Shown: positions 42,316-56,330 of the stretch, piece after piece
Position numbering within the stretch: the first letter of the stretch is position 1
How the letters are laid out: the number at the start of each line of letters is the position of its first letter
Source of the DNA: Elusimicrobia bacterium HGW-Elusimicrobia-2
GTDB lineage: Bacteria; CG03
NCBI GenBank assembly: GCA_002841685.1
Contig: PHAM01000001.1
Location: 7,086-71,085, forward strand
Direction of reading: 5' to 3'
DNA length: 64,000 bases
The notes under the pieces: model-generated
What the model saw: only the letters and a program-made list of their open reading frames with translations
Told to the model about the DNA's origin: nothing
Databases searched by the model: none
Made by a program: the position numbers and the translations under genes

Positions 42316-42338
42316 TTTATATCTCCTGAAATTCTGTT

Positions 42339-43358
42339 TTATCTCATTGTCAAAGCCATAATGGCCTTCTGGGCATGAAGCCTGTTTTCCGCCTCATCAT
42401 TCACTATGGAAATCTTCGGATCGTCAATAAGCGCGTCCGTAACTTCAAATTTCCTTCTGGCCGGCAGACAGTGCATATACACGGCGCTTTCATTGGCTTT
42501 CTCAAAATGCTTATGAGAAATACACCAGTCTTTTTTATAATTAGGCCCGACTTTGGCGTGCTTATCAGGGTCACGCGCCCATGATTTGGCGTATATGACA
42601 TCCGCGTCTTTAGACGCTTTCCATATATCATGCTCTATGTTGAGAGAGCCGCCGCTGACCGCTGCGGCTTTTTTGGCATAGTCAACATAATCCTGATCAA
42701 CATCATAAAGTCCCGGCTCATCCGGATAAGCCAAAGTTATGTTCATTCCCAGAGCGCAGCCCGCGGATATCATCGTCTGCGGAACGCCCGCCGATTTTGC
42801 TCTCTCGTCATAAGCCCATGACATAACAATTTTCTTTCTTCTGACAGATTCCATTCCGCCGAACTTTTCTATCATCGTCAGAATATCGCCCATGATCTGG
42901 CAGGGATGTTCCTTGTCATCCAGCATATTGATGATCGGCACTTTTGAGAATTCCGCAAGACCTCTCAACACTTCGCGGGCATCGCCATACGCATAGGTTT
43001 CCGCACCCATCTGAGCTTTAAGATTATACAGCCGGATAGCAAAACCGTCCAGAAACCTTGATATCATCTCGGCCGTGTCTTTCCACGATTCCTTATGGGA
43101 AAGCTGAAGTTCCTCGGGGCTATATGTCTGTCCATTTCCTCCGAGCTGGGAAATACCGCTTGAAAACGAGAGCCTCGTCCTCGTTGACGGCGAAGCAAAA
43201 AGCATACCAAGATTTTTGCCGGCGAGAAGATGCTTCTGGCTTTCGCCGATGGCATTTCTCAATTTCAAATCCCTCGCGACCTCAAGTATGGTTTCAAGCT
43301 CCTCCTTACTAAAGTCCCTCACGCTGATAAAATCTCTACCCTTAAGGTTAGTGATCAT
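42339..43358 (-). CDS. YgeW-family transcarbamylase (unknown-substrate carbamoyltransferase)
   Basis: 'SPSTRTRLSF', 'HPCQIMGD', 'KKIVMSWAYDERAKSAGVPQ...MNITLAYPDEPGLYDV...DADVIYAKSWA...KDWCISHKHF...VYMHCLPA' matches E. coli YgeW block by block (recalled from memory); lacks OTC 'DVWxSMG'. Confidence 0.7.
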   Translation of the reverse strand: MITNLKGRDFISVRDFSKEELETILEVARDLKLRNAIGESQKHLLAGKNLGMLFASPSTRTRLSFSSGISQLGGNGQTYSPEELQLSHKESWKDTAEMISRFLDGFAIRLYNLKAQMGAETYAYGDAREVLRGLAEFSKVPIINMLDDKEHPCQIMGDILTMIEKFGGMESVRRKKIVMSWAYDERAKSAGVPQTMISAGCALGMNITLAYPDEPGLYDVDQDYVDYAKKAAAVSGGSLNIEHDIWKASKDADVIYAKSWARDPDKHAKVGPNYKKDWCISHKHFEKANESAVYMHCLPARRKFEVTDALIDDPKISIVNDEAENRLHAQKAIMALTMR

Positions 43359-43393: not shown

Positions 43394-44617
43394 TTAAAAC
43401 ATATTTTTAAGCCATTCAATAAGGCCTTTTCTGCGTTTGCGGTGGCCGGGGGCGGTCAGCGACGGAGATTCCTTGCTCACATCGTATTTGAGCAGACCCA
43501 GGACAGATGTCCATGAAACATCGTCCACAACAGCCGCGTCGCCCGCGCAATTGGCGGGGTAGCCCAGCCGCGTCTGAAAACCGAGCTCCGCGCGCACATA
43601 ATCCTCCATCCCCGGCAGTTTGGCTCCGCCGCCGACAAGAATACAGCTCGGCACGAGATCAGGATTGATCTTCATAGCCTCAAGTTTTCCTTTGATGCCG
43701 CTCTTGCCGAAAATATCCGCCAGACGCCCGCTTATTATTTCCGATATATCTTTAAGGCTCACCTCGTCCTTGGTCCTGCCGTCGATCCTTGTGACCTCTA
43801 TTTTGCCTTCTTTGGGTATGTGCGCCTGTGTGGCGAAACCGAAATCCTCTTTGATCCTGGCCGCTTCGAGGCGCGAAGATTTTATCTCCCTCGCTATATC
43901 GTTGGTTATGTAATCGCTGCCGTTGCGGATCGCGAAAAAGCCTCTTATCCCGCCTTTATTAAAATAGGATGTTTCGCAAAGGCTGCCGCCTATGTCTATG
44001 AGTATGCAGCCGAGAGCTGTTTCATCGTCAAGAAGAACAAGTTCCGCGGCGGCCAGTGACGAGAGGATGGTGTTCTGTATCTCAAAACCCGCCTTCTCCA
44101 CGCATTTCCTTATATTGGTCAGCATTGACGCTTTGGCGATAATATTATGCACATTCACCTGAAGATGTTTCGCCGCCATACCCTTGGGATTCATTATCCC
44201 CCTCTGATTATCCACCATATACTCAAGGGGTATCGTGTGTATTATCTCATCCTCGGAATTCGGTATGCTGCTTCGCGCGGCCTGGAGCACCTGTTTCACC
44301 TCGTTGAAGCTCACCTCCTGGTCCTGAGACATGACCGCTATGGCGGCGTGATGATCCAGGCTTGATATGTGCATGCCGTGCACGCCGAGTGAAACGTAAT
44401 TAATATTGGTTTGCGCCTTGTCTTCAGCGCTTTCTATGACTTCTCTTATGGATTCGACAGTCTGGGGAATATCTATGATGATTCCCTCTCTTATGCCTTT
44501 GCAGGGCCTGGAATCATAGCCGAGAACTTTTATCTGCTCACCGACGACATCGCCTATCACGCATTTGATGTGCGACGACCCTATTTCAAGTCCGGCCCTG
44601 ATGCTTTCACCTGTCAT
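43394..44617 (-). CDS. ftsA: Cell division protein FtsA
   Basis: Actin-like ATPase motifs 'GLEIGSSHIKCVIG', 'ILIDIGGSLCETSYF', 'VLVGGGAKLPGM'; 407 aa. Confidence 0.9.
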   Translation of the reverse strand: MTGESIRAGLEIGSSHIKCVIGDVVGEQIKVLGYDSRPCKGIREGIIIDIPQTVESIREVIESAEDKAQTNINYVSLGVHGMHISSLDHHAAIAVMSQDQEVSFNEVKQVLQAARSSIPNSEDEIIHTIPLEYMVDNQRGIMNPKGMAAKHLQVNVHNIIAKASMLTNIRKCVEKAGFEIQNTILSSLAAAELVLLDDETALGCILIDIGGSLCETSYFNKGGIRGFFAIRNGSDYITNDIAREIKSSRLEAARIKEDFGFATQAHIPKEGKIEVTRIDGRTKDEVSLKDISEIISGRLADIFGKSGIKGKLEAMKINPDLVPSCILVGGGAKLPGMEDYVRAELGFQTRLGYPANCAGDAAVVDDVSWTSVLGLLKYDVSKESPSLTAPGHRKRRKGLIEWLKNMF

Positions 44618-45384
44618 TTATTATTTTCAACTCCTTTATGAAATTTTATAATAGCACTTCGCATTTTTTTTGTAAATGGGCGCAAATCTATGTACTGGAT
44701 CTTCCGGCCTTTTGACGCGGCGTCTTTTATAACTTTGCCCACAGACTCCACTTTTTCCCGGACAAGTTCCCGTTCGGGACTGCCGAATAGAACCGCGCAA
44801 TCGGCCATATTCATTTTAAGCGATTCCCCCTCCATTGAAAAAGAAATTATAGCCTCGTAGAAATTGTTTTCCGTATCCCGGATATCTTTTAAAAACGCCA
44901 TGATCTCATCGCGCCGCCCGGATGCCGCCTCATTGTAATCGCTCCACAGCGGGATCTTGTATTTTTGTTCGGCGGCAGAAACGCTCCTGACGATCTTATC
45001 GTCTAATGTAATGATAAATTTCCGGCTTTCCCTCATAAACATGGCCGCGGGAATACGCTCTTTGATCTTCACGATTATCTTTCCGGGCAAAACCCTTCTT
45101 ATCTTCGCTCTGTCTATCCACTGTTCTTTCAGGAACAGATCCTCATCCAGTTTGTAGCTGAAAATATTGGCTCCGGTTTTCATGTCTATGAGTTTCTTCA
45201 CGTAATCTTCATTGAGCACCGACAATCCCCGTATCTCTATTTTCGTGACATTGAGCTTATCCCAGCCGAGCAAAAAATTGTAACAGAAATGCGCGGCCGT
45301 GCCCAGAGCGAACAGGAAAAACAGCGCGAAAAGAATTTTAAAGCCGTTGCCCTTTTTTTTCTTTTTGCGGGGGCGCTTCTTCAT
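44614..45384 (-). CDS. ftsQ: Cell division protein FtsQ/DivIB
   Basis: Basic N-terminus, single TM, POTRA-like region; position between ddl and ftsA. Confidence 0.7.
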   Translation of the reverse strand: MKKRPRKKKKKGNGFKILFALFFLFALGTAAHFCYNFLLGWDKLNVTKIEIRGLSVLNEDYVKKLIDMKTGANIFSYKLDEDLFLKEQWIDRAKIRRVLPGKIIVKIKERIPAAMFMRESRKFIITLDDKIVRSVSAAEQKYKIPLWSDYNEAASGRRDEIMAFLKDIRDTENNFYEAIISFSMEGESLKMNMADCAVLFGSPERELVREKVESVGKVIKDAASKGRKIQYIDLRPFTKKMRSAIIKFHKGVENNK

Positions 45385-46316
45385 CTTTTGAGAGAATCTT
45401 TTATTATAGCCGCCACAGTTTCATCAAAGCTTATCCCGACAGCGGCGGCCGCCTCCGGCAAAAGGCTCGTCTCCGTCATCCCCGGAATAGTGTTTATTTC
45501 AAGGGCGTAAAAAATCCCTGCCTCGGACCTTATAAAATCCACACGGGCGGCGCCTTTTATGCCTAGAGCCCCGCAGACTTTCAGAGTGTCCCTGCCCAGA
45601 GCCGCGGATGATTTTCTGTCTATCAGCGCCGGCACAATATGAGCGCTCATGCCCGGAGCGTATTTTGCTTCGTAGTCGTAATATTTGTTTTTCGGCACTA
45701 TTTCCAAAACGGGAAGAACTTTCCCCGCAAGATACCCGACTGTAAACTCACGGCCTTTGATGTATTTTTCCGCCAAAATTTCATTGTCGCGCGCAAAAGC
45801 TTTATCAATTGCTTTCTTTATGCTTCCACGGCCTGTAACAATAGACAACCCCTCTGAAGAACCTTCTGAAGACGGTTTTATCACAACCGGCAGGAGGCGC
45901 GCGACTCTGTCAATTATATTTTTTTCGCCCCTGACAATTTTTATGCCGGGCGGTGTCTTTATGCCCTCGGCGGTAAAAATAGTTTTTGTAAGCGCTTTAT
46001 TCATACAGACGGCGGATGCGGGAACACCCGAACCGCTGTAAGGAAAGCCCATTATTTCAAGCAGGCTTTGAAGCCTGCCGTCTTCACCCCATGCCCCGTG
46101 GCAGGCTATGAAATAAAAATCCGCCCGGGCTGATTTAATTTTTGAGACCATATCGCCGCGACCTATGTCAACAATACGGCTTTTGAAAGCCAGCCGTTTC
46201 AGCGCCCCGTTGACAGCCGAGGCCGTTTTGAGCGATATCTCCCTCTCGCTCTTTGAAAGTCCCGCGAGCACCGCTATTTTTTTAATACCTGCTAGCTTTA
46301 TTTTTTTATTCTTCAA
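45381..46316 (-). CDS. ddl: D-alanine--D-alanine ligase
   Basis: ATP-grasp Ddl pattern 'FIACHGAWGEDGRLQSLLE', 'EGSSEG', C-terminal 'EINTIPGMTETSLLP'. Confidence 0.9.
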   Translation of the reverse strand: MKNKKIKLAGIKKIAVLAGLSKSEREISLKTASAVNGALKRLAFKSRIVDIGRGDMVSKIKSARADFYFIACHGAWGEDGRLQSLLEIMGFPYSGSGVPASAVCMNKALTKTIFTAEGIKTPPGIKIVRGEKNIIDRVARLLPVVIKPSSEGSSEGLSIVTGRGSIKKAIDKAFARDNEILAEKYIKGREFTVGYLAGKVLPVLEIVPKNKYYDYEAKYAPGMSAHIVPALIDRKSSAALGRDTLKVCGALGIKGAARVDFIRSEAGIFYALEINTIPGMTETSLLPEAAAAVGISFDETVAAIIKDSLKR

Positions 46317-46409
46317 CTTTTCACTCCTTCCTTAGCCCTGACTATAGAAAACATTTTCATTTTTTTCCACCGCCTCGCTGACAAATATCTCATATTTTTC
46401 ATATCCCTG

Positions 46410-46823
46410 CTAAAAAGTATCAGAACCGTCACCATACTTTTCCCTTGTGAATGTTGTTTTTCCTGTTATTTTGCCAAGGATAATATCGGCTTTTCTGCAA
46501 AGCATAACAAATTCTTCTTGCTCAAATCCGCTATGTTTCAAATTGTTATATATTCGGTGCCGTATCTCTACATATTCTTTGGATAACCTGATTGATTTAT
46601 CTCGATCCGAACTTGTTGGAAGTTGTTTGCTTAGACGATAGAGTTTTTTTGCAGCAACATAGCTTGCGTGTGCAATTTGAACACATTGCCAATTTAAGAC
46701 TTTATTAGGAGAACGAAGCGAAATAAAGACCGACTCCTGTAAGAAGTCCTTGATACGGCAGCACAAATCAAAAAAACCTACAAATGCTAAAATGCTTCCA
46801 ATTATCTGAATTGGTGATATCAT
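46410..46823 (-). CDS. Hypothetical membrane-anchored protein, translationally coupled to the type IIG RM gene
   Basis: 137 aa, hydrophobic N-terminus 'IQIIGSILAFVGFF', start 1 nt after RM gene stop; no recognisable domain. Confidence 0.45.
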   Translation of the reverse strand: MISPIQIIGSILAFVGFFDLCCRIKDFLQESVFISLRSPNKVLNWQCVQIAHASYVAAKKLYRLSKQLPTSSDRDKSIRLSKEYVEIRHRIYNNLKHSGFEQEEFVMLCRKADIILGKITGKTTFTREKYGDGSDTF

Positions 46824-46824
46824 T

Positions 46825-49800
46825 TCATTTAATCGGCCATTGGGGGGTGGTTTGGTCGATTTCGGTCATCAGGCGGGAGGTTTCTTTCAGCACAACTACT
46901 ATTTTCTGCCAGTGCAGAACTTCGTCAAATGTCAGGAAACGGCCTTTTCTGCTTTTCAGCCATTTGTCCAAAACCTGATAGCCGCCGATATAGAAATTCC
47001 AGACTGCTGGTTCTATTCCTTCAAAATACTGTTCTTTGTTGATATAAATTCTTTTTGTTTTTTCTTCGTAATTTACTTTCACGACTTCGTTTTTTCCGGA
47101 AATCGGAAATCTTGTGATGAGTTTTTCCAGTGCAGGTGATTCCATCAGGTGAAGTGAGACAAGTTCCTTTCCTTTTTTAACAAGGTTTTTGAAACGTTCC
47201 CTGTCGGAAGTCAAAGGCGCACGGGGAAAATCTATTTTCAAAAATTCGGCATATCTTTTTCTGTATTCCGGCGAATGAAAGACCGCATAGATGTAATAGA
47301 AAATATCTTCGGGGCCGAATGTCTTTTTTAAATCCCCCTGGCCGTCTAAAACAAAATCAAGTTTCAGTTTCCCGCTGACTTCCCTGACAAACTCCGGCTT
47401 AATATTCGGCTGACGCTTTGATTCTGTCTCGTTCTGTTTCTCATCAGGATAAAGATACAACGGAAAAATATATCCTCTTTCTTTCGTTTTATTTGACACA
47501 TAACAGTCATCTGTAATACTGTTTGTCGCTAAAATATGCCGCCAATTATTTCCTGATAATTGACGACATAAGTACAATGCAACATTATTCCCAAAAAGCA
47601 TATGACGCATAACTTTTTCCCTTACACGCCAAACAACTGTTGGATGATAATAAATATTCCTTGTATCAAACGGTCGATATAGCAATTTATCAAAATAATC
47701 TTTCCAATTTTCAACACTTGTTAATTCTGCTCGCGCTTTTGATACTCTCCACGCATAATTTTCTGATAACTTAAACTTTTCTTTTATTTCTATATCGCTG
47801 AAAGTTTTGTCTCTGAAACATTCTATTCTTTCTTTTAACGGTTCCTTTTCAAAATCAATTACGAATTTATCTCGCGCAGTAACAATGCCTGTGCAGTTTA
47901 CCGGAAAAATATCTGTGATTTTCCAGTATTTTTCGTATTCACTTCGTCCTTCTTCGTTTCTTGGAATAAAGAAGTAATATGGACTATTGGGGCTGAGTTC
48001 TTTATAATTTGTTTTATTAATATCGTTTTCTGAAAGAATTTCATATTTACTATCCCTCGTCCCCCACAAATCTGCATAATAAATTTTTGCCGGGCCTTCG
48101 GCTTTCTGTTTTTTTACGAATAAATTTATTGCAACACCCTGCTGTATGTCAAAAACATTTTCGTCTTTTGTGCCGTCGGGACATTTCTCCTTTTTCTTCG
48201 CATTGCCGTGCAGATTGAGAATATATATTTCCGAAAATGTATTGAGCAAAGACTGTCTCATTCCACGGAATGTGGGATTATCAAGGTAAGCGTGATTTGT
48301 TATTATTCCCACAACGCCCTGGCCTGTCCTGTCAATCTTCCACTGCGCGAAGCGGATGAACTTCACATAATCGTCCTGTAACCAGACTTTTCTCTCGTTC
48401 AAAGGTTTACCGTCAATGAATTTATAATCGTCTATTAGTTTTGTTATCCATTTTCCCATATTCGCGGATATACCGGAATAGGGGGGATTGCCGAGGATTG
48501 CCATTATCGGCACTTCGTTTTTTACTCTTGCGGCCTGGGCGGATTCTTCGGCTATGAACTGCGCGAATAGAGGCAGGTCTTTGTGCTCTGCTTCGCTTAG
48601 AGTGTTTGTGAGATAAATTCCAAGACGCTGGTCTGAATCAAATTTGTAGCCGGTCTCCTGCAGGAGGAGTCCGAGTTTCAAATGAGCGACCGTATAAGGC
48701 GCCATCAGAAGTTCAAATCCGAAGACTCTTTTCAGGAGATGCTCCGCTACATATTCGTCCCACACTCCCTTTTGTCCGTCTTTTTCCATCTTGTCATAGA
48801 TCAGTTTTATGACAGAGTACAGGAATGTTCCCGTTCCGCAGGCAGGGTCAAGAATAAATGTCTTTGAGTCCGCAAGCCCCTGCGGCCGTCTGAAACTCTT
48901 CTTAAGAATACTGTCAAGAGAACGGACAATGAATGAGACCACAGGTTCCGGCGTGTAGTAAACCCCGCGGGATTCCCTGAGCTTGGAGTCATAGGCGGCA
49001 AGAAATGTCTCGTAAAAATGGACGACAGGGTCTTCTTTCTTTGTCTTTACCCCGAAATCCTTTAAAATCTCCTTGATGTCGGATACGGAAAGAAGCTGGG
49101 CGAGGTCGTCAACAAGCCAAGCAATCCTGTCGTCAAGGTCGGGGCCTGCGATGTGGTTGAAAAGTTTCCTTAAGAACGGGTTTGTCTTTGGAAGGAGAAA
49201 AGCCGAGTGCTCACGGGTAAATTCTTTTTCGTCCGGCATATTGCACCGCGCCGCAAACAATCCGTAGGCGATTGTCTGGCTGTATAAATCGGCAAAGCTT
49301 TCCTGCCTTAAGCCCTGAATCAGTATTTCACGAAAGGCTTCATACTGGGAATGGAGAGTCCCTTTTTCCTGCTCTTTTTCAAAAGCCGCATTTATCAAAT
49401 CCCGGATCATTTGGGTTATCTGAGCCATACGCACCGCAAGTTTTTTAGGGCTTTTTATTTTTTCAGGAAGGACACAGAGAAAAGATTGGATAATTTTAAT
49501 AAACTGATCTTCATTCCTGTGCAGTAGGTTGACCTTCCCGGAAGAATCACACTCCCCTATGATTACGGTTTCCGCTCTTTCCCCGTTTACGTAGCGTCGG
49601 AATTCAAGATAATCAGTCAGTATTAAATTTGATAATGATGTGCGGTATCTTTTTAACTGCTCTGATTTTTCTATCTCGTCCAGACTCTTGCCTATGTCTT
49701 TCGTTTCAATATATCCAACCGTCAGTTTTTTCTTTGTGATGATAAAATCCGGAGCGCCGCAAGCGACTCTCTTGGGTTCGTTTATGGCAGAAATCCCGGC

Positions 49801-49914
49801 TTCAAAAGATTCAATCAATGTTTTCAGCGCCGGGCGATATGTATGCTCGCCCGCCTGGCCTGTCTTAAGGTTTTTCTGTATCTCCGATAAGTAGTTTTTT
49901 ATGTTAGCTGTCAT
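46825..49914 (-). CDS. MmeI-family single-polypeptide type IIG/IIL restriction-modification enzyme (endonuclease + N6-adenine methyltransferase + TRD)
   Basis: N-terminal PD-(D/E)xK 'PDFII...YIETKDIGKSLD' (cf. MmeI 'IEMKSRGKDLD'), SAM motif I 'DPACGTGTFL' (MmeI 'DPACGCGNFL'), catalytic 'ILGNPPYSG'; 1029 aa. Confidence 0.85.
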   Translation of the reverse strand: MTANIKNYLSEIQKNLKTGQAGEHTYRPALKTLIESFEAGISAINEPKRVACGAPDFIITKKKLTVGYIETKDIGKSLDEIEKSEQLKRYRTSLSNLILTDYLEFRRYVNGERAETVIIGECDSSGKVNLLHRNEDQFIKIIQSFLCVLPEKIKSPKKLAVRMAQITQMIRDLINAAFEKEQEKGTLHSQYEAFREILIQGLRQESFADLYSQTIAYGLFAARCNMPDEKEFTREHSAFLLPKTNPFLRKLFNHIAGPDLDDRIAWLVDDLAQLLSVSDIKEILKDFGVKTKKEDPVVHFYETFLAAYDSKLRESRGVYYTPEPVVSFIVRSLDSILKKSFRRPQGLADSKTFILDPACGTGTFLYSVIKLIYDKMEKDGQKGVWDEYVAEHLLKRVFGFELLMAPYTVAHLKLGLLLQETGYKFDSDQRLGIYLTNTLSEAEHKDLPLFAQFIAEESAQAARVKNEVPIMAILGNPPYSGISANMGKWITKLIDDYKFIDGKPLNERKVWLQDDYVKFIRFAQWKIDRTGQGVVGIITNHAYLDNPTFRGMRQSLLNTFSEIYILNLHGNAKKKEKCPDGTKDENVFDIQQGVAINLFVKKQKAEGPAKIYYADLWGTRDSKYEILSENDINKTNYKELSPNSPYYFFIPRNEEGRSEYEKYWKITDIFPVNCTGIVTARDKFVIDFEKEPLKERIECFRDKTFSDIEIKEKFKLSENYAWRVSKARAELTSVENWKDYFDKLLYRPFDTRNIYYHPTVVWRVREKVMRHMLFGNNVALYLCRQLSGNNWRHILATNSITDDCYVSNKTKERGYIFPLYLYPDEKQNETESKRQPNIKPEFVREVSGKLKLDFVLDGQGDLKKTFGPEDIFYYIYAVFHSPEYRKRYAEFLKIDFPRAPLTSDRERFKNLVKKGKELVSLHLMESPALEKLITRFPISGKNEVVKVNYEEKTKRIYINKEQYFEGIEPAVWNFYIGGYQVLDKWLKSRKGRFLTFDEVLHWQKIVVVLKETSRLMTEIDQTTPQWPIK

Positions 49915-50135
49915 CTCTGAAATAGCGCCATATTTAATATTTCACATTTGCAAAATTAATTCTGTATTTCATTCTCGTCTTAAAAATGCCATCATCCTTT
50001 TAATATTTTTTTATTCGTTTGTATAGAAGTTTCAAGGATAGGTGTTTAAACGCTTGTATTATAAGCATTTAAGATTCCTCATCTTCGTTCGGAATGACAT
50101 GTTTAATGCTTTTTGGAGTAGACTCATTATTAAAT

Positions 50136-50999
50136 TTATTTATCATTTTCCGACATAGTAAACTTCAATTCGGCTGTGATAACATTGTTATCGTCAATTA
50201 TATTTTTTTCCATGCTTGTTTTTTCTTCTATTGCCAAAATTACTTTTTTGATTCTTTTTACATTACCCGTCCCAATACCATGAACCTTAATATAATCAAT
50301 CCCATATTTTAACCTTGTCAATATCTCCTTTTCAATATCTTCTTCCTTCATTTCAAAGCTCACAAACACTGAGCACGGCAAATCATCGACATAGGGATCG
50401 TATAAGCTAAGAAACTTTGTTTTAATTTTGTCTTCCGTCGTATATATTTTGGATAATGCTTCATACATTTCCTTAAAGTCTTTTTCATAATATCCTGCTG
50501 TGCATAAATTTGTAATATTAGCGCCTCTCTTGCCATACTTGTCCCGAATATCCCTCTTCATATCCCTCACTTCCTGATTTCTGTGTTCCAAAAATACCTT
50601 CTTGATATACATAGCTTGCCTGAGTATTATTAAATCTACTGAGGAAATTTTATTTTGGTAAAATTTTAATATTGCTTGAACATCCGGCTCCGAATCCTTC
50701 TTTTTTATATCTTCAGCCCAATCGTTGTCTTTTGTTGTAAGAAAAATAGGTTCACCTTTAACTGATTCCTTGGCGCTGTCCTTTAAAAGAGTATTTAAAA
50801 TATTTCTGTCGTCCTGACTAAGCTTTTCAGGATTAATAATCGTTTTGCCATTTTCTGACATAACGCTTTGACTGCTTTGACAGTTAATCACAACGTTGCA
50901 ATTATTAAAAGTATTGCCGTCGCCTTTTTGGATGCTATCTGCTATTTTTGCATCAACATTGTTAGTGATGAGGCCTTTGAAAAATTCTTTCCAACCCAC
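50136..50999 (-). CDS. Hypothetical protein (island cargo); weak Smr-like 'HG(K/I)GTG' motif near C-terminus
   Basis: 287 aa, AT-rich codon usage, C-terminal 'IDYIKVHGIGTGNVKRIKKVIL' loosely resembles second Smr-domain motif; overlaps upstream small ORF (ATGA). Confidence 0.45.
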   Translation of the reverse strand: MGWKEFFKGLITNNVDAKIADSIQKGDGNTFNNCNVVINCQSSQSVMSENGKTIINPEKLSQDDRNILNTLLKDSAKESVKGEPIFLTTKDNDWAEDIKKKDSEPDVQAILKFYQNKISSVDLIILRQAMYIKKVFLEHRNQEVRDMKRDIRDKYGKRGANITNLCTAGYYEKDFKEMYEALSKIYTTEDKIKTKFLSLYDPYVDDLPCSVFVSFEMKEEDIEKEILTRLKYGIDYIKVHGIGTGNVKRIKKVILAIEEKTSMEKNIIDDNNVITAELKFTMSENDK

Positions 51000-51244
51000 T
51001 ATTTGTTGCGAGTTGCCACTTTAAAAATTGATGGCAAATCTGATTTTATAAACAATTCTGACCCTTTTTGTACCCCCGCAAAATCATCCAGCAATAACTC
51101 TTCTCCATCCGGGGTTAAAACTCTTTGCGCGAGGTTATCTGTTTCAACTACATATCCGTCTGCATCAACTGTTTTACCAAATATTTTTAAAATAAATTCT
51201 TTCGTTTTTTGATCTTCTCTAAAAGTGATAACTTCTTCACTCAT
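50999..51244 (-). CDS. Hypothetical small acidic protein (island cargo)
   Basis: ~81 aa from ATG 51244 (AAAGGAG RBS 6 nt upstream); coupled to downstream 287-aa ORF. Confidence 0.4.
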   Translation of the reverse strand: MSEEVITFREDQKTKEFILKIFGKTVDADGYVVETDNLAQRVLTPDGEELLLDDFAGVQKGSELFIKSDLPSIFKVATRNK

Positions 51245-51377
51245 TGTCATCTCCTTTATTTTTCATATCGCCCTTTCATCATCATAATTGTTCATTTATA
51301 CCAATTTGTAAAAGCCATGTAAAGCCCCATGATGAGTCCACCCCGATTGTCAGGATAAATTTCAGCAAAATGAACTT

Positions 51378-52226
51378 TCATTTTCCGAATCTTCCCCAGA
51401 ACTCGACGAGAGTCTCCAGATAAACGCCTTGCGCCTCATAAACCCTCGCGCGAATCCTGCTCATCAGTTCATAAGCGTCGTCGGCAGGCCTCCCGCCCCG
51501 CAAAACAAAAACATTCGCGTGAAGAGGCGAGACAGAAACGCCGCCCGCGCGCCAGCGCGAACAGCCGCATTGCTCGATGAGTTTGCCCGCCGGTATCCCT
51601 GCGGGATTCCTGAATATGCACCCGCTCCCGTTCTTGTATATAAAACCTTTTTCCTTTCTTTTTGCCGTCAGCTCTTTTATCCTGTCAATTATTTTTTTCC
51701 CGGCTTTTTTCCTCAGCGAAAAACAGGCTTCCAATATAACGGCGGGGATTGGAACGGGCCCCGTCCTGTAAGAAGCTTTTATCATCCCGCCCGAGATCCT
51801 GTATTCCCTCCCCGAACGGTAAAACCTGAGCCATTTGAGGACATCACTTATGGCACTTCCGAAAGCACCGGCGTTTTTAAAAACAGCCCCCCCGACGGAG
51901 GCGGGAATCCCCGAAAGGTTTTCCAGGCCGCAAAGCCCCGCCGCGGCGCTTTTTTTTATCACATCTTTCAGCCCGGCGCCGGCCCCGGCGATAACATCGT
52001 TGCCTTTGAGCTTAATTTTTTTGAAATCCCCGTCGAGCATGAGCGCCGGTTCGGTTAAACCCGCGGAAGAAATAATGACATTGGAGCCGTTTCCCAAAAC
52101 CCTGAAAGTGTGGAACTGCTCCGTAAAAGCCTTAAGTTCAGCGACGGTGGTGGCCTGCCACACATGAGCCGGGCCGCCCGAGGCAAGATAAGTAATATCC
52201 CTCAGATTAATAAAGCTAACTTCCAT
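51378..52226 (-). CDS. murB: UDP-N-acetylenolpyruvoylglucosamine reductase
   Basis: FAD-binding 'FRVLGNGSNVI', 'LENLSGIPASVGGAVFKNAGAFG'; 282 aa. Confidence 0.9.
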   Translation of the reverse strand: MEVSFINLRDITYLASGGPAHVWQATTVAELKAFTEQFHTFRVLGNGSNVIISSAGLTEPALMLDGDFKKIKLKGNDVIAGAGAGLKDVIKKSAAAGLCGLENLSGIPASVGGAVFKNAGAFGSAISDVLKWLRFYRSGREYRISGGMIKASYRTGPVPIPAVILEACFSLRKKAGKKIIDRIKELTAKRKEKGFIYKNGSGCIFRNPAGIPAGKLIEQCGCSRWRAGGVSVSPLHANVFVLRGGRPADDAYELMSRIRARVYEAQGVYLETLVEFWGRFGK

Positions 52227-53544
52227 TTTTTGACAGCGGCGTCAGATCCCTGCCGGCAGGCAGTCTGACATTTGACATGCTCAAGTTTTTTTTAGAAAGT
52301 TTGAGATACTGGATCAGCGGTATCCCCGACGGGCAGACATAAGCGCAGGCGCCGCACTCCATACAGTTCATGGCTTTATCATAGGCCTTCCCCGCTTTGT
52401 AAAGAGCAAAACTCTCACGGGGCATAAGACCCATGGGGCACACCGACGCGCAGCGCAGACAGCGCAGGCACTCATATTCTTTCCTTTCCTCGCCCCACAG
52501 CAGCAGAATGCCGCTGGTTGCCTTGGAAACCGGCACATCCATATCGCACACGGCCTGGCCCATCATGGGCCCGCCGAATATGATCTTATTCACATTGTCG
52601 GGCAAGCCCCCTCTGAAATTTATTATATCTTCCAGGCGCGTTCCCGCGGGGATAATAACGTTTCCGGGTTTTCTGAAATAAGCGCCGAGCGTCACCACTC
52701 TCTCATAGAGCGGCTTGCCTTTAACAACGGCCTCATAAACCGCGAAAACCGTCCCGACATTCATAACCGCCACCCCCACATCCAGCGGAAGGCCGCACAT
52801 GGGCACCTTCTTACCGCTAACAGCGTAGATCAGCTGTTTTTCTCCGCCCTGGGGGTATTTCGTTTTAAGGAGCTTCACTTTTATCCTCTCGGAGCTCCTG
52901 TTTAAAAGCTCCTGCGCGGCGTCGGGTTTATTGTCCTCTATCCCTATGATTATCTGTTTGGCCGACAAGGCCCGGGCCGCGATCTTCGCGCCTTCTATTA
53001 TATCAGCCGCCTTCTCCCTGATAAGACTTTCGTCGGCGGTGAGAAAAGGTTCGCACTCGCAGGCGTTGACAATAAGGGTTGTCACCTTTTTACCGGGGGG
53101 CGGTGAAAGTTTCACATCCGCGGGGAAAGCGGCGCCGCCAAGGCCCACGATCCCGGAATTCCTGACTATCTCGCTGATCTGGGACGGAGCAAGCAGCGAC
53201 GGATCCTTAATATTTCCCGCGGGAGCGGGCTCATCCTTAAAATCATTTTGGATTATAACGGCCTCAAGTTTTTTTCCGGAACAATGCGGCCACTTTTTTA
53301 TATCCTCTACGACTCCGGAAACGGGAGAATGTATAAAAGCTGATATCCTGCCGTCGGGTTCGGCTATAATCGAACCCTTCAGCACGGCGTCTCCCTTTTT
53401 AACAACGGCCTTTGACGGAGCGCCGCAGCTGTTGGAAAGATGCAGATACACTTTCTCCGCAGCGGGGAGCCTCTCTATGGAAAAAGCCGAACTGTCTTTA
53501 TGCTGTGCGGGGTGAACACCGCCCGCAAAAGTGGCCGGTCTCAT
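52216..53544 (-). CDS. RnfC/NqrA-like iron-sulfur flavoprotein (stand-alone)
   Basis: SLBB/NADH-binding-like region and C-terminal 2x4Fe-4S 'CLRCLRCASVCP...CMECGACAYVCP'; start set to Met preceding conserved region; no other rnf genes nearby. Confidence 0.7.
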   Translation of the reverse strand: MRPATFAGGVHPAQHKDSSAFSIERLPAAEKVYLHLSNSCGAPSKAVVKKGDAVLKGSIIAEPDGRISAFIHSPVSGVVEDIKKWPHCSGKKLEAVIIQNDFKDEPAPAGNIKDPSLLAPSQISEIVRNSGIVGLGGAAFPADVKLSPPPGKKVTTLIVNACECEPFLTADESLIREKAADIIEGAKIAARALSAKQIIIGIEDNKPDAAQELLNRSSERIKVKLLKTKYPQGGEKQLIYAVSGKKVPMCGLPLDVGVAVMNVGTVFAVYEAVVKGKPLYERVVTLGAYFRKPGNVIIPAGTRLEDIINFRGGLPDNVNKIIFGGPMMGQAVCDMDVPVSKATSGILLLWGEERKEYECLRCLRCASVCPMGLMPRESFALYKAGKAYDKAMNCMECGACAYVCPSGIPLIQYLKLSKKNLSMSNVRLPAGRDLTPLSKNGS

Positions 53545-55121
53545 GACAAAAGGCTCTCCTCCATTTTCCTGAACATGGAAACAGCCGCGCCAACACATTC
53601 GGGGTCAAACTGCGTGCTCGAATTGATTATCAGCTCTTCTATCGCCGCGGCCACCGTTAATTTACGGCCGTAATTCCTGTCGCAACGCATAGCGTCAAAA
53701 GCGTCGCAAACGGCTATGATCCGGGCGCCGAGCGGAATATCTTTTCCTTTCAGCCCTTCAGGGTAACCCGTCCCGTCCCATTTTTCATGATGATATTTGA
53801 CATAAGGGGCCAAAGCGCTGAGCCCCGCGCTTTTTTCCAGAATCGCCGCGCCCGTTTCGGAATGTTTTTTCATCAGCGCCCATTCCTTGTCGCTGAGCGG
53901 ATCCGGTTTCTGCAGTATTTCCTGCGGCACGGCGATCTTGCCTATATCATGCAGCAAAGCGGCCAGAGATATCTCCTTCGCCGTATTCTCATCCTGCCCT
54001 AATGCCAGCGCAAGTTCTTTGGCTGTGGAGAGCATATTCCTCGAGTGCCTGGGATTGGGATAATATCCGGCCTCCAGCGTATCGAGCAGCAGCGCCGCCG
54101 TGTCTATAAAGGTTTCGGGAATCCCGGAATCGCGCGGCGGCTGTTTCAGCACCTGGGTGATCTGAGAAGCCAGTATGCTCAAATACAGCATATCCTGCGA
54201 CGAAAAATCCTGACCGTTGATCTTGTTCACCGTCTCAATAACGCCCACGGGCCCGTCGGCATCGCCAAGAGGCGCGACCATAATGTTCCTCGTTGAAAAA
54301 CCGGCTATTTCATCCACCCTGGAAGAAAAGTGCTCGGACTCCCCCGCTTCGTTGACAATGGCCTCGCGGCCTGTCTTCACCGCCCAGCCGGAAATCCCCT
54401 CATTAGCGGGAAACTCATACCCTAAAAGTTTATCCTTGACTTCGCCCGTTACGGCCGTAAAACGCAGGACGTTTTTCTCTTTATCAAGGAGCATAACGGA
54501 GGCAGCCTCGCATTCCACAATATCCGCGGCGGCGCGGACGCTATCCTCAATAAACTGCTGAAAACCGGAAACTTTGGAAAATGCTTTAACAATATCAAAA
54601 AGTTTCTGCATCTTGATGATGCTGCTGTTCATATCCGCCAGAAGAACGGCCTGCTCCATTATTTTCTCGAGCAGCGCCGCGGCTTCGTTAAAGAGCTTCA
54701 CCTCATGCGGGGGGAACTTTTCGCGCCTGTCGGCGTGAAAGGCCACCATCATCCCCCGCACGGCCACACCCGAACCTATGGGAAAACACATAAAACCCTC
54801 GTTTTCAACATGTCCAGTTGATCCGCCTTCTATGTTTTTGAATATTTTTAGAGCGTACTCCCGCTTTTCCATATCCGCATCGAGCAGTTCGTCTTCCTGT
54901 TTGACCGGATAAAAAGAGAACAGCTCTGTCTGACTGTCTATAACGGCTATCATCACTTCGGCATGCACGGCGTCACCGAGTATATGAGCGGCGCGGGAGA
55001 GGAATTCATCTTTGCCTATGGTCAAATCCATGAGTTTCACCAGGCCGCTGATCACCTTGCATCTCAGGTCCAGCTGCAAAACCGTTTCCCTCAGCAGAAT
55101 TACCTGCTTATTATCTTCCAT
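53541..55121 (-). CDS. GAF-domain HD-GYP phosphodiesterase
   Basis: Two GAF-like regions then HD-GYP 'LLHDIGKIAV...HHEKWDGTGYPEGL'. Confidence 0.85.
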   Translation of the reverse strand: MEDNKQVILLRETVLQLDLRCKVISGLVKLMDLTIGKDEFLSRAAHILGDAVHAEVMIAVIDSQTELFSFYPVKQEDELLDADMEKREYALKIFKNIEGGSTGHVENEGFMCFPIGSGVAVRGMMVAFHADRREKFPPHEVKLFNEAAALLEKIMEQAVLLADMNSSIIKMQKLFDIVKAFSKVSGFQQFIEDSVRAAADIVECEAASVMLLDKEKNVLRFTAVTGEVKDKLLGYEFPANEGISGWAVKTGREAIVNEAGESEHFSSRVDEIAGFSTRNIMVAPLGDADGPVGVIETVNKINGQDFSSQDMLYLSILASQITQVLKQPPRDSGIPETFIDTAALLLDTLEAGYYPNPRHSRNMLSTAKELALALGQDENTAKEISLAALLHDIGKIAVPQEILQKPDPLSDKEWALMKKHSETGAAILEKSAGLSALAPYVKYHHEKWDGTGYPEGLKGKDIPLGARIIAVCDAFDAMRCDRNYGRKLTVAAAIEELIINSSTQFDPECVGAAVSMFRKMEESLLS

Positions 55122-55127
55122 ATTCGC

Positions 55128-56330
55128 TCAGTCCTCCCAGTTTTCAATCAGATAATTTTTGTTTTCCTCAAAGATCCCGGCCTGCCGCCCCACAGCTTCG
55201 TCAACGCCGAGCTGCTCGCATTCTTTCAGAAAAGAATCCAGCCGGGCGTAATAAAAAGGCGTGATCAGCCCGACGAGCTTGAAACGGTCTTTTTTCCAGC
55301 GGTGGTAAATGCAGGCAAAATCATAGACGATCCTCGTCCACAGATCGGCGGAAAACATTTTGGAAGCATTGGCCTTTTTAAGCGAAGCGAAAGTGCTCTG
55401 CCGCAAAATGTCCTTCCATATCTTCATGAGATTCACGGATGAGGCCATGTATCTTTCAAAATAATCGTCGTTCCCGATGGCGAGCTTCGGGGGCGTCACT
55501 TCGTACGGCGCGTTGACAAAGGGGATGTCGCGGCTTCCCTTGACCATCTCCCATTTGTGGCAGTATCTTTCCATCAGCTTGAAACTTGTGCTGAGCACCT
55601 GGCGGAACATCGGACCCAACTGGTCGGGGCGGCGGCTGTCATGATCCTTGACGCCGAGAAAGCACTGCCCCGTGCGGAAAGACTCATTGGCCGCTATTGT
55701 CGTCATCCATATATCTATGCCGAATCTTGACACGTTGTTGTCCCAGTAAGCCCAGTCAAGGAAATACCTCACAAGAGGAGCCCTCATGCCGAAATCCCCT
55801 CCTATGGGCTGCCGCAGGCGCTGGCCATAAAGGGCTCTCGTCAAAGGATATGTTATCAGGTTTGTTATCGTGCCGTCCCTGTAATCCCTGACATAGTAAG
55901 GCGTGATGAAATCAAATTCTCCCGCCAGCAGCGGAGTGCCGAGATCCCTCAGCCATTCGGGGTTTATGCTTTTCAGATCAGCGTCAAAGAGCATCAGCAC
56001 CTTTGCTTTGAGGATACGCGCGGCTTCCATGATCGCCCTTAAAGCCATCCCCTTCCCAGCGAGTCCCCTGTATGTCGTGCACACCTTTTCGGATGAGGCG
56101 CTCTTGAATTTATCAAAAGCTATGTCCAGCGTGCTGTCGGTGGAATTACCGTCTGAGACCATTATAACGGACTTTGACTTCGGGAAATATTTGGACAGTC
56201 CCTTATCTACGGTTTTGAGGACACCGAGTATGGTCTTCTCATTGTTGAAAGACGGTATGCCGACAAGTATATCAACATGCTTCATCGTATGGAGCTGTTG
56301 ATGTATATTCGATCCTAAGCTGGACTTCAT
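55128..56330 (-). CDS. Family 2 glycosyltransferase
   Basis: GT-A fold N-terminus 'ILVGIPSFNNEKTI...VIMVSDGNSTDST', DxD-like 'LFDADLK'; 400 aa. Confidence 0.6.
   Translation of the reverse strand: MKSSLGSNIHQQLHTMKHVDILVGIPSFNNEKTILGVLKTVDKGLSKYFPKSKSVIMVSDGNSTDSTLDIAFDKFKSASSEKVCTTYRGLAGKGMALRAIMEAARILKAKVLMLFDADLKSINPEWLRDLGTPLLAGEFDFITPYYVRDYRDGTITNLITYPLTRALYGQRLRQPIGGDFGMRAPLVRYFLDWAYWDNNVSRFGIDIWMTTIAANESFRTGQCFLGVKDHDSRRPDQLGPMFRQVLSTSFKLMERYCHKWEMVKGSRDIPFVNAPYEVTPPKLAIGNDDYFERYMASSVNLMKIWKDILRQSTFASLKKANASKMFSADLWTRIVYDFACIYHRWKKDRFKLVGLITPFYYARLDSFLKECEQLGVDEAVGRQAGIFEENKNYLIENWED

Follow-up and report, generated by a model that had tools for sequence, protein, structure and literature searches.

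A low-GC insertion carrying a restriction-modification enzyme between murB and ddl in Elusimicrobia is probably a composite, nested islet

The DNA between murB and ddl (46287–51375, about 5.1 kb) in the 64-kb stretch of Elusimicrobia sequence analysed here, referred to as the window, is judged from comparison with relatives to be a genuine insertion. The comparison suggests that the region is probably a composite, nested accessory islet in a lineage-specific hotspot, spread by homologous recombination. It would then be an ordinary kind of core-gene-flanked defence hotspot, although its location is unusual. The island contains a two-gene cassette (p83 and p287), a single-chain restriction-modification (RM) enzyme, and a small predicted membrane protein (p137). 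All four ORFs are on the minus strand and, as an earlier note on this DNA had reported, run in the same direction as murB and ddl. The relatives available for comparison (loci with L numbers below) are only a handful, and all are MAGs or metagenome contigs.

The GC content of the island is 38.5% over 46317–51377, against 49.1% for the rest of the window, and no 5.06-kb stretch of the window has a lower value. Windowed GC, which is 0.48–0.54 in murB/rnfC and near 0.49 in ddl, is 0.30–0.40 across 46250–51250, and GC3 is 0.26–0.44 in the island and 0.49–0.63 in the flanks, which confirms the abrupt fall described previously. The low GC is uneven, with values of 0.46–0.49 at 48250–49250, where the RM gene encodes its methyltransferase domain. 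Domain and family searches of the four proteins found no integrase, transposase or recombinase domains, again in agreement with the earlier note. The description of the island as a defence island holds for the RM enzyme (PADLOC REase_MTase_IIG, 1060 bits), but not for the genes within 46410–46823 and 50136–51244, since p83, p287 and p137 match no defence model.

The upstream core flank is murB (UDP-N-acetylenolpyruvoylglucosamine reductase; 51378–52226, minus strand; Pfam MurB_C 4e-21, FAD_binding_4 1e-13), which is syntenic in L002, L003 and L082, and whose start overlaps an rnfC-like gene (52216–53598). The downstream flank is ddl (D-Ala-D-Ala ligase; 45381–46316, minus strand; Pfam Dala_Dala_lig_C 3e-45), followed by ftsQ (44614–45384) and ftsA (43394–44617). 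In other bacteria the gap between murB and ddl is about 200 nt or less in 79 of 84 syntenic loci, and in L003, which represents the empty site, the two genes overlap by ATGA, such that the ddl ATG overlaps the murB TGA (...TTTTCAAAATGAAAAAAATTGCGGTG). On these grounds the island is read as an insertion into a normally tight junction, as had been proposed.

The left junction (51292–51381, minus strand) retains a remnant of the ancestral ddl start, in which ATGAAA overlaps the murB stop (TGA, 51378–51380). A 29-codon ORF now starts at this ATGAAA and extends into the inserted DNA; JGI annotates a 29-aa gene here. The junction reads GGAAAATGAAAGTTC in the window and GGAAAATGAAACCAAAG in L082, and homology to the empty site stops at about 51376. 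At the other end, an alignment of ddl upstream regions indicates that ddl has a new leader located on the inserted DNA (46284–46392, minus strand). Its putative elements are a promoter-like TGGAAA-N17-TATAGT (46341–46369, from a promoter scan), the RBS GGAAGGAG, a TTG start (46314–46316) and a 10-codon N-terminal extension. The decayed ancestral start is ATT at 46284–46286 in place of ATG; L003 and L104 have ATG at the same position, L091 has ATC and L002 has ATA. The window, L091 and L104 have the GGAG...TTG leader in common. The insertion point lies inside an essential-gene operon where the flanking genes overlapped, so that a new ddl start had to be supplied.

The first cassette gene, p83 (50999–51250, minus strand, 83 aa), encodes a small acidic protein (pI 4.6), whose true start is likely to be the ATG at 51244, giving 81 aa. 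Searches of Pfam, PADLOC, NCBIfam and PHROG assign it to no family, and the p83 stop and the p287 GTG start overlap (TAGTG). Homologues of p83 with 41–48% identity are found directly upstream of distant p287 homologues. The second gene, p287 (50136–50999, minus strand, 287 aa), consists of a variable N-terminus, a helical domain with the sequence KYGxRGxNIxNLCSAGYFE, and a C-terminal Alba-fold domain with NIHGIGxxN. The cassette family is widespread (558 clusters) and uncharacterised. p287 differs from Alba/SpoVS/IF3-C-like fold proteins in that it lacks sequence-level membership (the isolated domain has no Pfam match), in that the domain is fused to an unmatched N-terminal and helical part of about 200 residues, and in having its own invariant NIHGIGxxN and a constant partner gene of 77–86 aa.

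Upstream of the cassette there is a putative promoter (51284–51323, minus strand), TTTACA-N17-TATAAA with an overlapping TTTACA-N17-AATTAT, which the promoter scan lists at 51312–51284 with 9/12 matches. The block GGGGCTTTACATGGCTTTTACAAATTGrTATAA is kept in the window, L002, L082 and L090, and is missing in L003. The cassette is kept at the murB–ddl site in at least four lineages, and p83 and p287 stand alone upstream of ddl, with no RM gene, in L002, L086 and L087. The previous view of one island is therefore upheld as regards the insertion but not as regards a single unit.

The RM enzyme (46825–49914, minus strand, 1029 aa; Pfam Type_ISP_C 1e-94, N6_Mtase 5e-14) has a PD..ExK-like nuclease at its N-terminus (PD55-56, E70-x-K72), a gamma-class N6-adenine methyltransferase (DPACGTG at 356, NPPY at 476), a target-recognition domain (TRD) that is Type_ISP_C, and no helicase. 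A phmmer search of the PDB gave LlaBIII (1e-51), LlaGI (5e-45) and 7lo5 (1e-44). The last, a 1029-aa chain, is taken to be DrdV from its chain length and molecule name. The alignment to solved structures covers only residues ~293–932, and the N-terminal nuclease region matches no solved structure. The earlier note had proposed an MmeI-family type IIG/IIL enzyme. A single-chain type IIL/IIG enzyme is what is found, but not membership of the MmeI family: Pfam MmeI_Mtase scores 20.7 bits, below the 27-bit cut-off, the TRD is Type_ISP_C, and there is no MmeI structure among the PDB matches. By homology the enzyme is DrdV/type-ISP-like. It resembles DrdV in being a single chain of 1029 aa that lacks a translocase and joins an N-terminal nuclease to a gamma-class N6A methyltransferase and a Type_ISP_C-type TRD, while its likeness to LlaGI and LlaBIII, both of type ISP, lies in the methyltransferase–TRD module. 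The methyltransferase and TRD of DrdV and type ISP enzymes are highly similar (bioRxiv 10.1101/2021.01.06.425610). Like DrdV and MmeI, to judge by homology, the enzyme most likely places methyl groups on one strand at an asymmetric site, and cleaves DNA without this mark a fixed distance away. The gene is intact, with its motifs present and 92–95% amino-acid identity between lineages, against 0.65–0.69 at 4-fold sites.

Between p287 and the RM gene is an AT-rich spacer of 221 nt (49915–50135), 94–95% identical to L082, which marks the approximate left edge of an addition comprising the RM gene and p137. Homology to L002, which has the cassette only, breaks off ~30 nt short of the p287 stop and resumes within ddl. 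p137 (46410–46823, minus strand) begins a single nucleotide downstream of the RM stop and encodes a small basic protein (pI 9.4), with about 20 hydrophobic residues at the N-terminus that are read as a membrane segment. No family was found for it in Pfam, PADLOC or other family searches. The earlier statement that three of the ORFs have no recognisable family is thus borne out for p83 and p137, and p287 has an Alba-fold domain without a Pfam match. Homologues of p137 form only three clusters. One adjoins the same RM gene in L091 and is 98% identical to p137 in DNA; another is flanked by a STAND-like NTPase and an MkoA-like helicase (L094/L095).

All four island genes are present at the same junction in one other lineage, represented by two MAGs (L082/L083 and L091/L092). 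The earlier note had regarded such an occurrence as evidence against an insertion, but the insertion stands, given that other relatives are empty or have different cargo. In L104, the genes directly upstream of ddl are a type III Mod (645 bits), a DUF1016/PDC-S02 nuclease and a type III Res (590 bits), at 29–47% GC and all co-directional. This island is at least 8 kb long; the 8 kb of flank ends short of murB, so the murB side is outside the view.

Sliding identity between the window and L082 and L091 is 0.85–1.00 from about 51200 to about 45650, and the non-coding spacers in this tract are 0.94–0.98 identical. In rnfC, murB and ftsQ identity is 0.61–0.83, with 0.45–0.51 at 4-fold sites. Within ddl, identity to L091 is 0.96–0.98 at 45761–46060 and then 0.61–0.73 through ftsQ, which indicates that the 5′ two-thirds of ddl is part of a recently exchanged tract. 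The breakpoints are approximate rather than exact to the base, against a background identity of 75–80%. The island and part of ddl are far more alike than the flanks, which points to homologous recombination, acting via the conserved flanks, as the means of spread.

The comparisons point to a history in three steps, of which they show the first two. The cassette, with its own promoter-like leader, was inserted after ddl codon 2; the old ddl ATG then decayed, leaving ddl to be read from an RBS and start on inserted DNA. In some lineages the type IIL RM enzyme and the tightly coupled p137 were added between the cassette and ddl, and in the L104 lineage the type III RM and DUF1016 nuclease lie directly upstream of ddl instead. 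Finally, the mosaic identity suggests that cargo has been exchanged among related Elusimicrobia, with crossovers probably close to where murB meets p83 and within ddl. Recombination through the flanks would not need an integrase. Co-directional cargo presumably keeps ddl-ftsQ-ftsA expressed by read-through, internal promoters or both. One difficulty is that the low GC3 of the cassette (0.26–0.35) has persisted although synonymous sites appear saturated with changes relative to L002, which is unexpected of a cassette long inherited vertically; it might instead have been acquired repeatedly from a shared low-GC pool. Tentatively, the cassette may be a toxin-antitoxin-like or other conflict module, with p287 binding nucleic acid via its Alba-fold domain.

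Direct repeats were previously described as bounding the island. Both are present as described (ATTTTTCATATCCCT at 46394–46408 and ATTTTTCATATCGCCCT at 51258–51274). The exact word common to both is 13 nt, TATTTTTCATATC, at 46393–46405 and 51257–51269, and its 12-mer has no further copy in the window. In 5000 shuffles of the boundary spacers (93 and 127 nt), a shared word of at least 12 nt occurred in 0.16% and of at least 13 nt in 0.06%, and a comparable word was shared by 11 of 3000 random segment pairs from the island. The repeat is therefore unlikely to be due to chance (p about 0.001–0.004), for a word chosen post hoc. The ddl-proximal copy comes directly after the p137 stop codon, and L091 and L093 have an identical copy at the corresponding position. 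The murB-proximal copy (GATATGAAAAATA on the minus strand) is just before the p83 RBS, inside the conserved 5′ leader of the cassette in every relative, as ATATGAAAAATAAGGAG in L002 and L082 and ATATGAATAATTAAGGAG in L090. The repeats do not bound the island, since the sequence missing from the empty site reaches about 105 nt outside each copy.

These observations bear on the idea of a single mobile element, in which all four genes arrived in one event and the 13–15-nt repeats are a target-site duplication or att core. In favour of this idea, the repeat is unlikely by chance and has no further copy in the window, L082 and L091 keep both copies in the corresponding positions, and its core ATATGAAAAA is similar to the ancestral ddl start (in L104 the ddl ATG still in use is AATATGAAAAAG, and L003 has AAAATGAAAAAAA), so it could descend from a duplicated target. 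We nevertheless consider a single element improbable. The cassette occurs in relatives without the RM gene and p137, L002 already has weaker flanking copies (ATATGAAAAAT and ATATGAAAAT), and inserted DNA extends beyond both repeats, of which the murB-side copy is downstream of the promoter-like block. Moreover, the island proteins include no recombinase, distant cassettes lack the repeat motif, and identity to L082/L091 is a mosaic rather than uniform. The nested islet, for its part, leaves the 13-nt repeat without a certain explanation.

A somewhat less improbable view, though still an unlikely one, is that the cassette is a lineage-specific housekeeping addition, for example an Alba/SepF-like regulator binding nucleic acid or FtsZ, and that only the RM enzyme and p137 are defence genes. 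Identity to L002 at 4-fold sites is 0.58 in p287 and 0.53–0.56 in the flanks, so the cassette has diverged in step with its flanks and its history in the cassette-only relatives appears vertical. In L184 a distant cassette follows rpoA-rplQ, and in L185 one lies between glmS and pyrRBC; both stand alone in a setting of housekeeping operons. The neighbours of distant cassettes gave no defence matches, which leaves a defence role for the cassette unsupported. Against this, the cassette is missing in the close relative L003 and patchy elsewhere, has its own promoter-like leader, adjoins resolvases in L098 and L103, and has a different context in every lineage. Its GC3 is also far below that of the genome. 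An assembly or binning artefact, joining low-GC foreign DNA to murB and ddl contigs, is hardly credible. It is true that two related-lineage MAG assemblies break in the RM gene (at residues ~291–326, where L082 stops and L091 begins), but these halves overlap and have the same gene order. The order murB-cassette-RM-p137-ddl is also found on an 81-kb JGI contig, an 82-kb NCBI contig (HGW-Elusimicrobia-2) has a 100%-identical p287, and cassette–ddl junctions occur in four independent JGI samples. The same junctions thus recur across independent assemblies (JGI, NCBI HGW-Elusimicrobia-2, and NCBI/ENA/Logan MAGs).

The composite islet joins a known class of core-gene-flanked defence hotspots. In Pseudomonas aeruginosa, cDHS1 and cDHS2 are marked by core genes and have no obvious mobile-element machinery, and homologous recombination via the flanks has been proposed (PMC10250203); the integration hotspots of E. 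coli are a further core-gene-flanked precedent (PMC10121019). The murB–ddl islet shares with them a variable or empty content between core genes, GC below that of the genome, and RM or other defence genes. It differs in its very small size (1.4–5 kb where both ends are in view and at least 8 kb in L104, compared with a median of 26 kb), in lying inside an essential-gene operon at a former gene overlap and supplying a new ddl start, in having all its cargo co-directional with the operon, and in being known only from a few uncultured Elusimicrobia. In Endomicrobium, from the same phylum, RM systems act as mobile units; for example, an RM set and hypothetical genes lie between mutS and mutL, with no traces of transposons or integrases (Zheng et al., 2016, PMC4760077); that paper cites Nobusato et al. 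(2000) for insertion with long target duplication. Both cases place RM and hypothetical genes between contiguous core genes without mobile-element traces. Most of the RM genes in Endomicrobium are pseudogenes, and direct repeats never flank them, whereas the murB–ddl islet has an intact RM gene, a short direct repeat, and evidence of exchange between lineages.

An rnfC-like gene (52216-53598, minus strand) comes first in the gene order, followed on the same strand by murB (51378-52226), the four cargo ORFs and ddl (45381-46316), and then by ftsQ and ftsA. The cargo consists of p83 (50999-51250) and p287 (50136-50999), which together are called the cassette here, an RM enzyme (46825-49914) and p137 (46410-46823). 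The window is also matched by an 81-kb contig (Ga0246099_100154) of JGI metagenome 3300029890, and a 100%-identical copy of p287 is annotated in 'Elusimicrobia bacterium HGW-Elusimicrobia-2'. The earlier note placed the island inside a dcw cluster. This is correct in that murB, ddl, ftsQ and ftsA are present, except that the cluster here consists of these four genes only. The genes 5' of murB are the rnfC-like gene, GAF-HD and glycosyltransferase genes, and two OTCase/ATCase-family genes lie 3' of ftsA. No FtsZ/tubulin signature (GGGTG[ST]G) was found in any frame of the 64-kb window. In place of ftsZ after ftsA are the two OTCase/ATCase-family paralogues and a carbamate/amino-acid kinase gene (41269-43358), and the order ftsA, OTCace, OTCace, AA_kinase is also kept in the related loci L086 and L091. 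A third OTCase/ATCase-family paralogue is found upstream at 56327-57271. The rnfC-like gene encodes an RnfC/Nuo51-like FMN and 4Fe-4S protein of 460 aa and overlaps the murB start at 52216-52226, an arrangement shared with the related loci L002, L003 and L082. As an operon partner of the flavoenzyme MurB, a coupled electron-transfer subunit is unusual.

The drop in GC content between murB and ddl that had been described is borne out by windowed GC, which falls from about 0.5 to 0.30-0.40 across 46250-51250. The island has a GC content of 38.5%, against 49.1% in the remaining window, and is the lowest-GC 5-kb stretch within the 64 kb. GC3 is 0.26-0.44 in the cargo genes vs 0.49-0.63 in the flanks. 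The exception in GC is the methyltransferase part of the RM gene, at 0.47.

Close relatives were sought by a Ddl-based scan of species-representative genomes, which gave two, L002 and L003. One extra close relative, L104 (SWCC01004375; Ddl 80.5% and FtsA 91% identical), was among the matches listed in the Ddl metagenome scan. L003 (Elusimicrobiota MAG156; Ddl 78% identical) has an empty site, with the stop codon of murB overlapping the start of ddl (...TTTTCAAAATGAAAAAAATTGCGGTG). Across 84 loci drawn from many phyla, with murB ahead of ddl and both on one strand, the gap between the two genes is estimated at about 200 nt or less in 79; the outliers are L105 (382 nt), L068 (470 nt), L002 and L118 (both 1386 nt) and the window itself (5119 nt). 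Given the overlap in L003 and these short gaps, the insertion is therefore derived and unusual, and its position at the murB-ddl junction stands as first described. Compared with L003, the inserted DNA spans ~51375 to ~46287, and its left junction keeps the ATGAAA that overlapped the murB stop (GGAAAATGAAAGTTC in the window, GGAAAATGAAACCAAAG in L082). One of the outliers, L118 (Ga0210006_1000068, 6628-7963), comes from a distant bacterium (Ddl 46% identical) and has further genes between murB and ddl, for a membrane protein of 126 aa and a protein of 170 aa that by eye resembles the ORF6N/antirepressor type. The junction thus takes up small accessory insertions elsewhere too, though rarely (5 of 84 loci).

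The relatives differ in what they hold at the junction. L002 (Elusimicrobia CG03_land_8_20_14_0_80_50_18; Ddl 80% identical) and L086-L089, four JGI contigs from that species, contain only the p83 and p287 pair, also in low-GC DNA. Both flanks of this cassette-only state (murB, pair, ddl) are visible in L002 alone; in L086 and L087 the pair is directly followed by ddl, and L088 and L089 are short and show neither flank. A second lineage, represented by MAGs GCA_013791675.1 and GCA_018900575.1, has all four genes, with murB, p82, p287 and the RM N-terminus on L082-L085, and the RM C-terminus, p144 and ddl on L091-L093. The independent assemblies of this lineage (NCBI, ENA, Logan) all end within the RM gene at one place, residues ~291-326 (~48900-49100 in the window). 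Here the methyltransferase segment of higher GC begins and identity falls locally to 0.77-0.80, which suggests either strain-level mosaicism or paralogous methyltransferase sequence confusing the assembly. L104 has different cargo directly 5' of ddl: a type III Mod (PADLOC 645 bits), a DUF1016/YhcG PD-(D/E)XK protein (PDC-S02) and a type III Res (590 bits), together with genes to which no role is assigned, all co-directional and with GC of 0.29-0.47. This cargo fills at least the 8 kb of flank covered, which does not extend to murB, so that the murB side is unseen. A different DUF1016 gene lies just 5' of the cassette in L090, a 2.5-kb contig with neither murB nor ddl.

The same flanks thus enclose variable contents, including none, across the window, L003, L002/L086, L082 with L091, and, as seen from its ddl side, L104. 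Because the contents differ among relatives, the stretch 5' of ddl is a small hotspot, whose occupancy states at the junction number at least four. Only about four states of the cargo are seen in all, and the recognised defence cargo is RM IIL in the window, and RM III with PDC-S02 in L104.

Comparison of the window with L082 and L091 indicates how the contents may have moved. Nucleotide identity is 0.61-0.83 over rnfC and most of murB and 0.61-0.73 over most of ftsQ, while between ~51200 and ~45650 it is 0.85-1.00. Within this segment it is 0.94-0.95 in the non-coding p287-RM spacer, 0.97-1.00 in p137 and the p137-ddl spacer, and 0.96-0.98 in the middle of ddl. At 4-fold sites, identity to the four-gene lineage is 0.45-0.51 for rnfC, murB and ftsQ, and 0.98 for p137. 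High identity in non-coding DNA and at the 4-fold sites of p137 is not a result of purifying selection. The island and part of ddl have an ancestor shared more recently than that of the two genomes. The simplest mechanism would be exchange of incoming DNA by homologous recombination through the conserved flanks, which would require no integrase. Such a route has been proposed for the core defence hotspots of Pseudomonas aeruginosa (PMC10250203). Against L002, the divergence of the cassette matches that of its flanks, with a 4-fold-site identity of 0.58 in p287 compared with 0.53-0.56 in murB, ddl and ftsQ. This is consistent with inheritance of the cassette since the common ancestor with L002.

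On these comparisons, the description that suits the locus best is a small, nested defence hotspot, exchanged by recombination, where murB and ddl overlapped, a reading that replaces the repeat-bounded mobile island of the earlier note. The kind is known and the place unusual, with an uncharacterised, widespread two-gene family as a by-product. The locus shows that even the junction of two overlapping essential genes can host turnover of defence genes. The conditions that appear to apply are cargo in the direction of the operon, replacement by the insertion of the translation start, and conserved flanks for homologous recombination. No relevant paper came up in a literature search on insertions in dcw clusters. 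For Endomicrobium, of the same phylum, RM genes are described as inserted between contiguous core genes with no sign of mobile elements (PMC4760077); exchange through the flanks would fit these insertions as well, and the present locus is a second and better preserved Elusimicrobia case.

The direct repeat had been taken as the border of the island. Its two copies, one ddl-proximal and one murB-proximal, are positioned exactly as stated, share 13 exact bases (46393-46405 and 51257-51269), and contain a 12-mer that occurs only at these two sites in the 64 kb. Among shuffles, ~0.1% give a shared word of this length between the boundary spacers; among random pairs of segments from the island, 0.4% do. 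They are nevertheless not borders: each copy lies ~105 nt inside the inserted DNA. A target-site duplication with the 13-mer as border is therefore rejected, because the inserted DNA continues past both copies. Nor does the empty site carry one repeat copy, as had been expected, since L003 has just the core ATGAAAAA, which is the ddl start itself. The absence of mobility genes noted previously holds for the four island proteins, which have no tyrosine or serine recombinase, integrase or transposase match in Pfam, NCBIfam, PHROGs or PADLOC. With no recombinase, repeats that are not at the borders and no full copy in the empty site, an integrase-mobilised genomic island was also rejected.

The murB-proximal copy is part of a conserved cassette leader (ATATGAAAAATAAGGAG in the window, L002 and L082), 3' of a conserved promoter-like block TTTACA-N17-TATAAA. 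That the repeat motif is a feature of the cassette itself was ruled out, because the motif was not found in the distant cassettes. The ddl-proximal copy comes after the stop codon of p137, and L091 has an identical one. A weaker pair is already present in the cassette-only relatives, with ATATGAAAAAT preceding p83 and ATATGAAAAT located where ddl now starts. The repeat core ATATGAAAAA is the ancestral ddl start context, and in L104 AATATGAAAAAGATTGCG is the live ddl start. We infer, with low confidence, that the repeat copies may be relics of the ddl start region, which would have been duplicated, or used as microhomology, upon insertion of DNA at this A-rich site.

The ancestral ddl ATG has decayed yet is recognisable, as ATT in the window, ATC in L091 and ATA in L002, and is intact in L104 and L003. 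The present ddl start is an upstream TTG behind the RBS GGAAGGAG, ~10 codons longer, and the new leader is common to the window, L091 and L104. In all the variants, each of the cargo genes points in the direction of the operon, which extends what was first seen in the window. Between murB and ddl, no terminator-like site was found on the minus strand except one inside p137, and promoter-like elements before p83 and before ddl are conserved among the relatives. The arrangement fits a presumed need for insertions to keep ddl-ftsQ-ftsA expressed.

The RM enzyme (1029 aa) matches Pfam N6_Mtase (5e-14) and Type_ISP_C (1e-94) and PADLOC REase_MTase_IIG (1060 bits), with motif I (DPACGTG) at 356 and motif IV (NPPY) at 476. 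Its assignment as a single-chain enzyme of type IIL/IIG is thus right, but membership of the MmeI family is wrong: Pfam MmeI_Mtase scores 20.7 bits, below the 27-bit cut-off, no other MmeI model matches, and phmmer against the PDB gives no MmeI. The nearest solved structures in that search are LlaBIII (1e-51), LlaGI (5e-45) and the 1029-aa chain 7lo5 (1e-44), which we infer to be the type IIL enzyme DrdV. The MTase and TRD of DrdV are stated to be very similar to their type ISP counterparts (bioRxiv 10.1101/2021.01.06.425610). LlaGI and LlaBIII, which are type ISP enzymes, have 1406-1578 aa, whereas the enzyme here has 1029 aa and no translocase; no helicase, ResIII or AAA domain was found with Pfam. 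A PD...ExK-like motif (PD55-56...E70-T-K72) is readable in the N-terminus, and the full-length PADLOC model PDLC03631 matches from residue 5; residues 1-290 have no match to a dedicated nuclease HMM in Pfam or to a solved structure (phmmer against PDB). Between the lineages the protein is 92-95% identical, against 0.65-0.69 at 4-fold sites. Purifying selection thus acts on it, and the enzyme is probably active.

The gene for p137 begins 1 nt past the RM stop and encodes a basic protein with a hydrophobic N-terminal segment, read as membrane-spanning. Homologues fall into three clusters only. One lies beside the same RM gene and another is on a short contig. The remaining one is a 65%-identical homologue from unrelated metagenomes (L094 640-2181 and L095 1052-2599), between a STAND-like NTPase (PADLOC PDC-M28C, 6e-16) and an MkoA-like (Mokosh) helicase (4e-29). 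By its neighbours, p137 recurs in defence-like settings, yet not as a dedicated RM partner.

The most useful by-product of the analysis is a lead to an unannotated two-gene family with an Alba-fold domain and a constant small partner. A word-index search with p287 gave five close homologues only, all in these Elusimicrobia; a full HMMER profile search gave 558 clusters with E<=1e-3, and 406 when the limit was E<=1e-10. At 50% identity, the family comprises no fewer than 558 clusters. Most of the matches listed are 250-300 aa long. No member matches Pfam, no PDB sequence matches, and there is no match in IMG/VR, phage or plasmid collections. Residues Y170, F212 and H240 are invariant, and D122, K148 and the loops KYGxRGxNIxNL and HGIGxxN are conserved. 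In an AF2 prediction made from 54 diverse sequences, the C-terminal domain has an Alba/IF3-C-type alpha/beta fold. Assignment to the Alba superfamily by sequence was rejected for lack of a Pfam Alba match; across 26 isolated domains of the family, no sequence match to Alba, SpoVS or Smr was found except one to Smr at E = 0.14.

A gene of 77-86 aa lies 5' of the p287 homologue in six unrelated contexts, with an overlap or a gap of 0-24 nt, and in three of the six its product is homologous to p83 (41-48% identity). In the window the two genes overlap by TAGTG. They form an adjacent, co-oriented, tightly spaced pair kept across lineages, as in type II toxin-antitoxin systems; no recognisable toxin or antitoxin domain was found in either protein (Pfam, PADLOC, NCBIfam, PHROG, PDB), and p83, p287 and p137 match no PADLOC defence model. 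The leading guess, though a rather doubtful one, is a toxin-antitoxin-like or other conflict module, because the partner is small and acidic (pI 4.6), the coupling is tight, the pair has its own promoter-like leader, its distribution is patchy and its GC is low. It is unlikely, though conceivable, that the pair is a previously undescribed, widespread and addictive two-gene conflict module (toxin-antitoxin, abortive infection or similar), whose effector would act on nucleic acid via the Alba-fold domain (invariant His, NIHGIGxxN) and the KYGxRGxNIxNL loop. If so, an addictive module would explain both fixation in an essential cell-wall operon and the seeding of a defence hotspot. The main alternative is a lineage-specific housekeeping role for the cassette. 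A defence role outside the murB-ddl locus is unsupported: the neighbours of distant homologues gave nothing in PADLOC beyond one marginal Cas3-HD match (E = 5e-4), and guilt by association was rejected on these neighbours and on the lack of IMG/VR, phage or plasmid matches.

No family or structure match to p83 was found at permissive thresholds. Its residues ~31-57, GY(I/V)VExDNPAQKVLTPDGExLL..F, align ungapped to the T4 fibritin foldon tag of PDB 7jph_B, and its C-terminal half has a weak SH3-motif likeness (both E > 0.8, not significant), which may hint at a small beta-rich oligomerisation domain. Distant cassettes follow rpoA-rplQ (L184), lie between glmS and pyrRBC (L185) or near HD and HTH genes (L099), or occur near resolvases and giant proteins (L098, L103). 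In both of these last loci (L098 1-2447 and L103 1-2123), a giant protein of 1816 to >2100 aa that has no Pfam domain occurs together with a protein of ~180-214 aa and a serine resolvase, and this may be a mobile element carrying the cassette.
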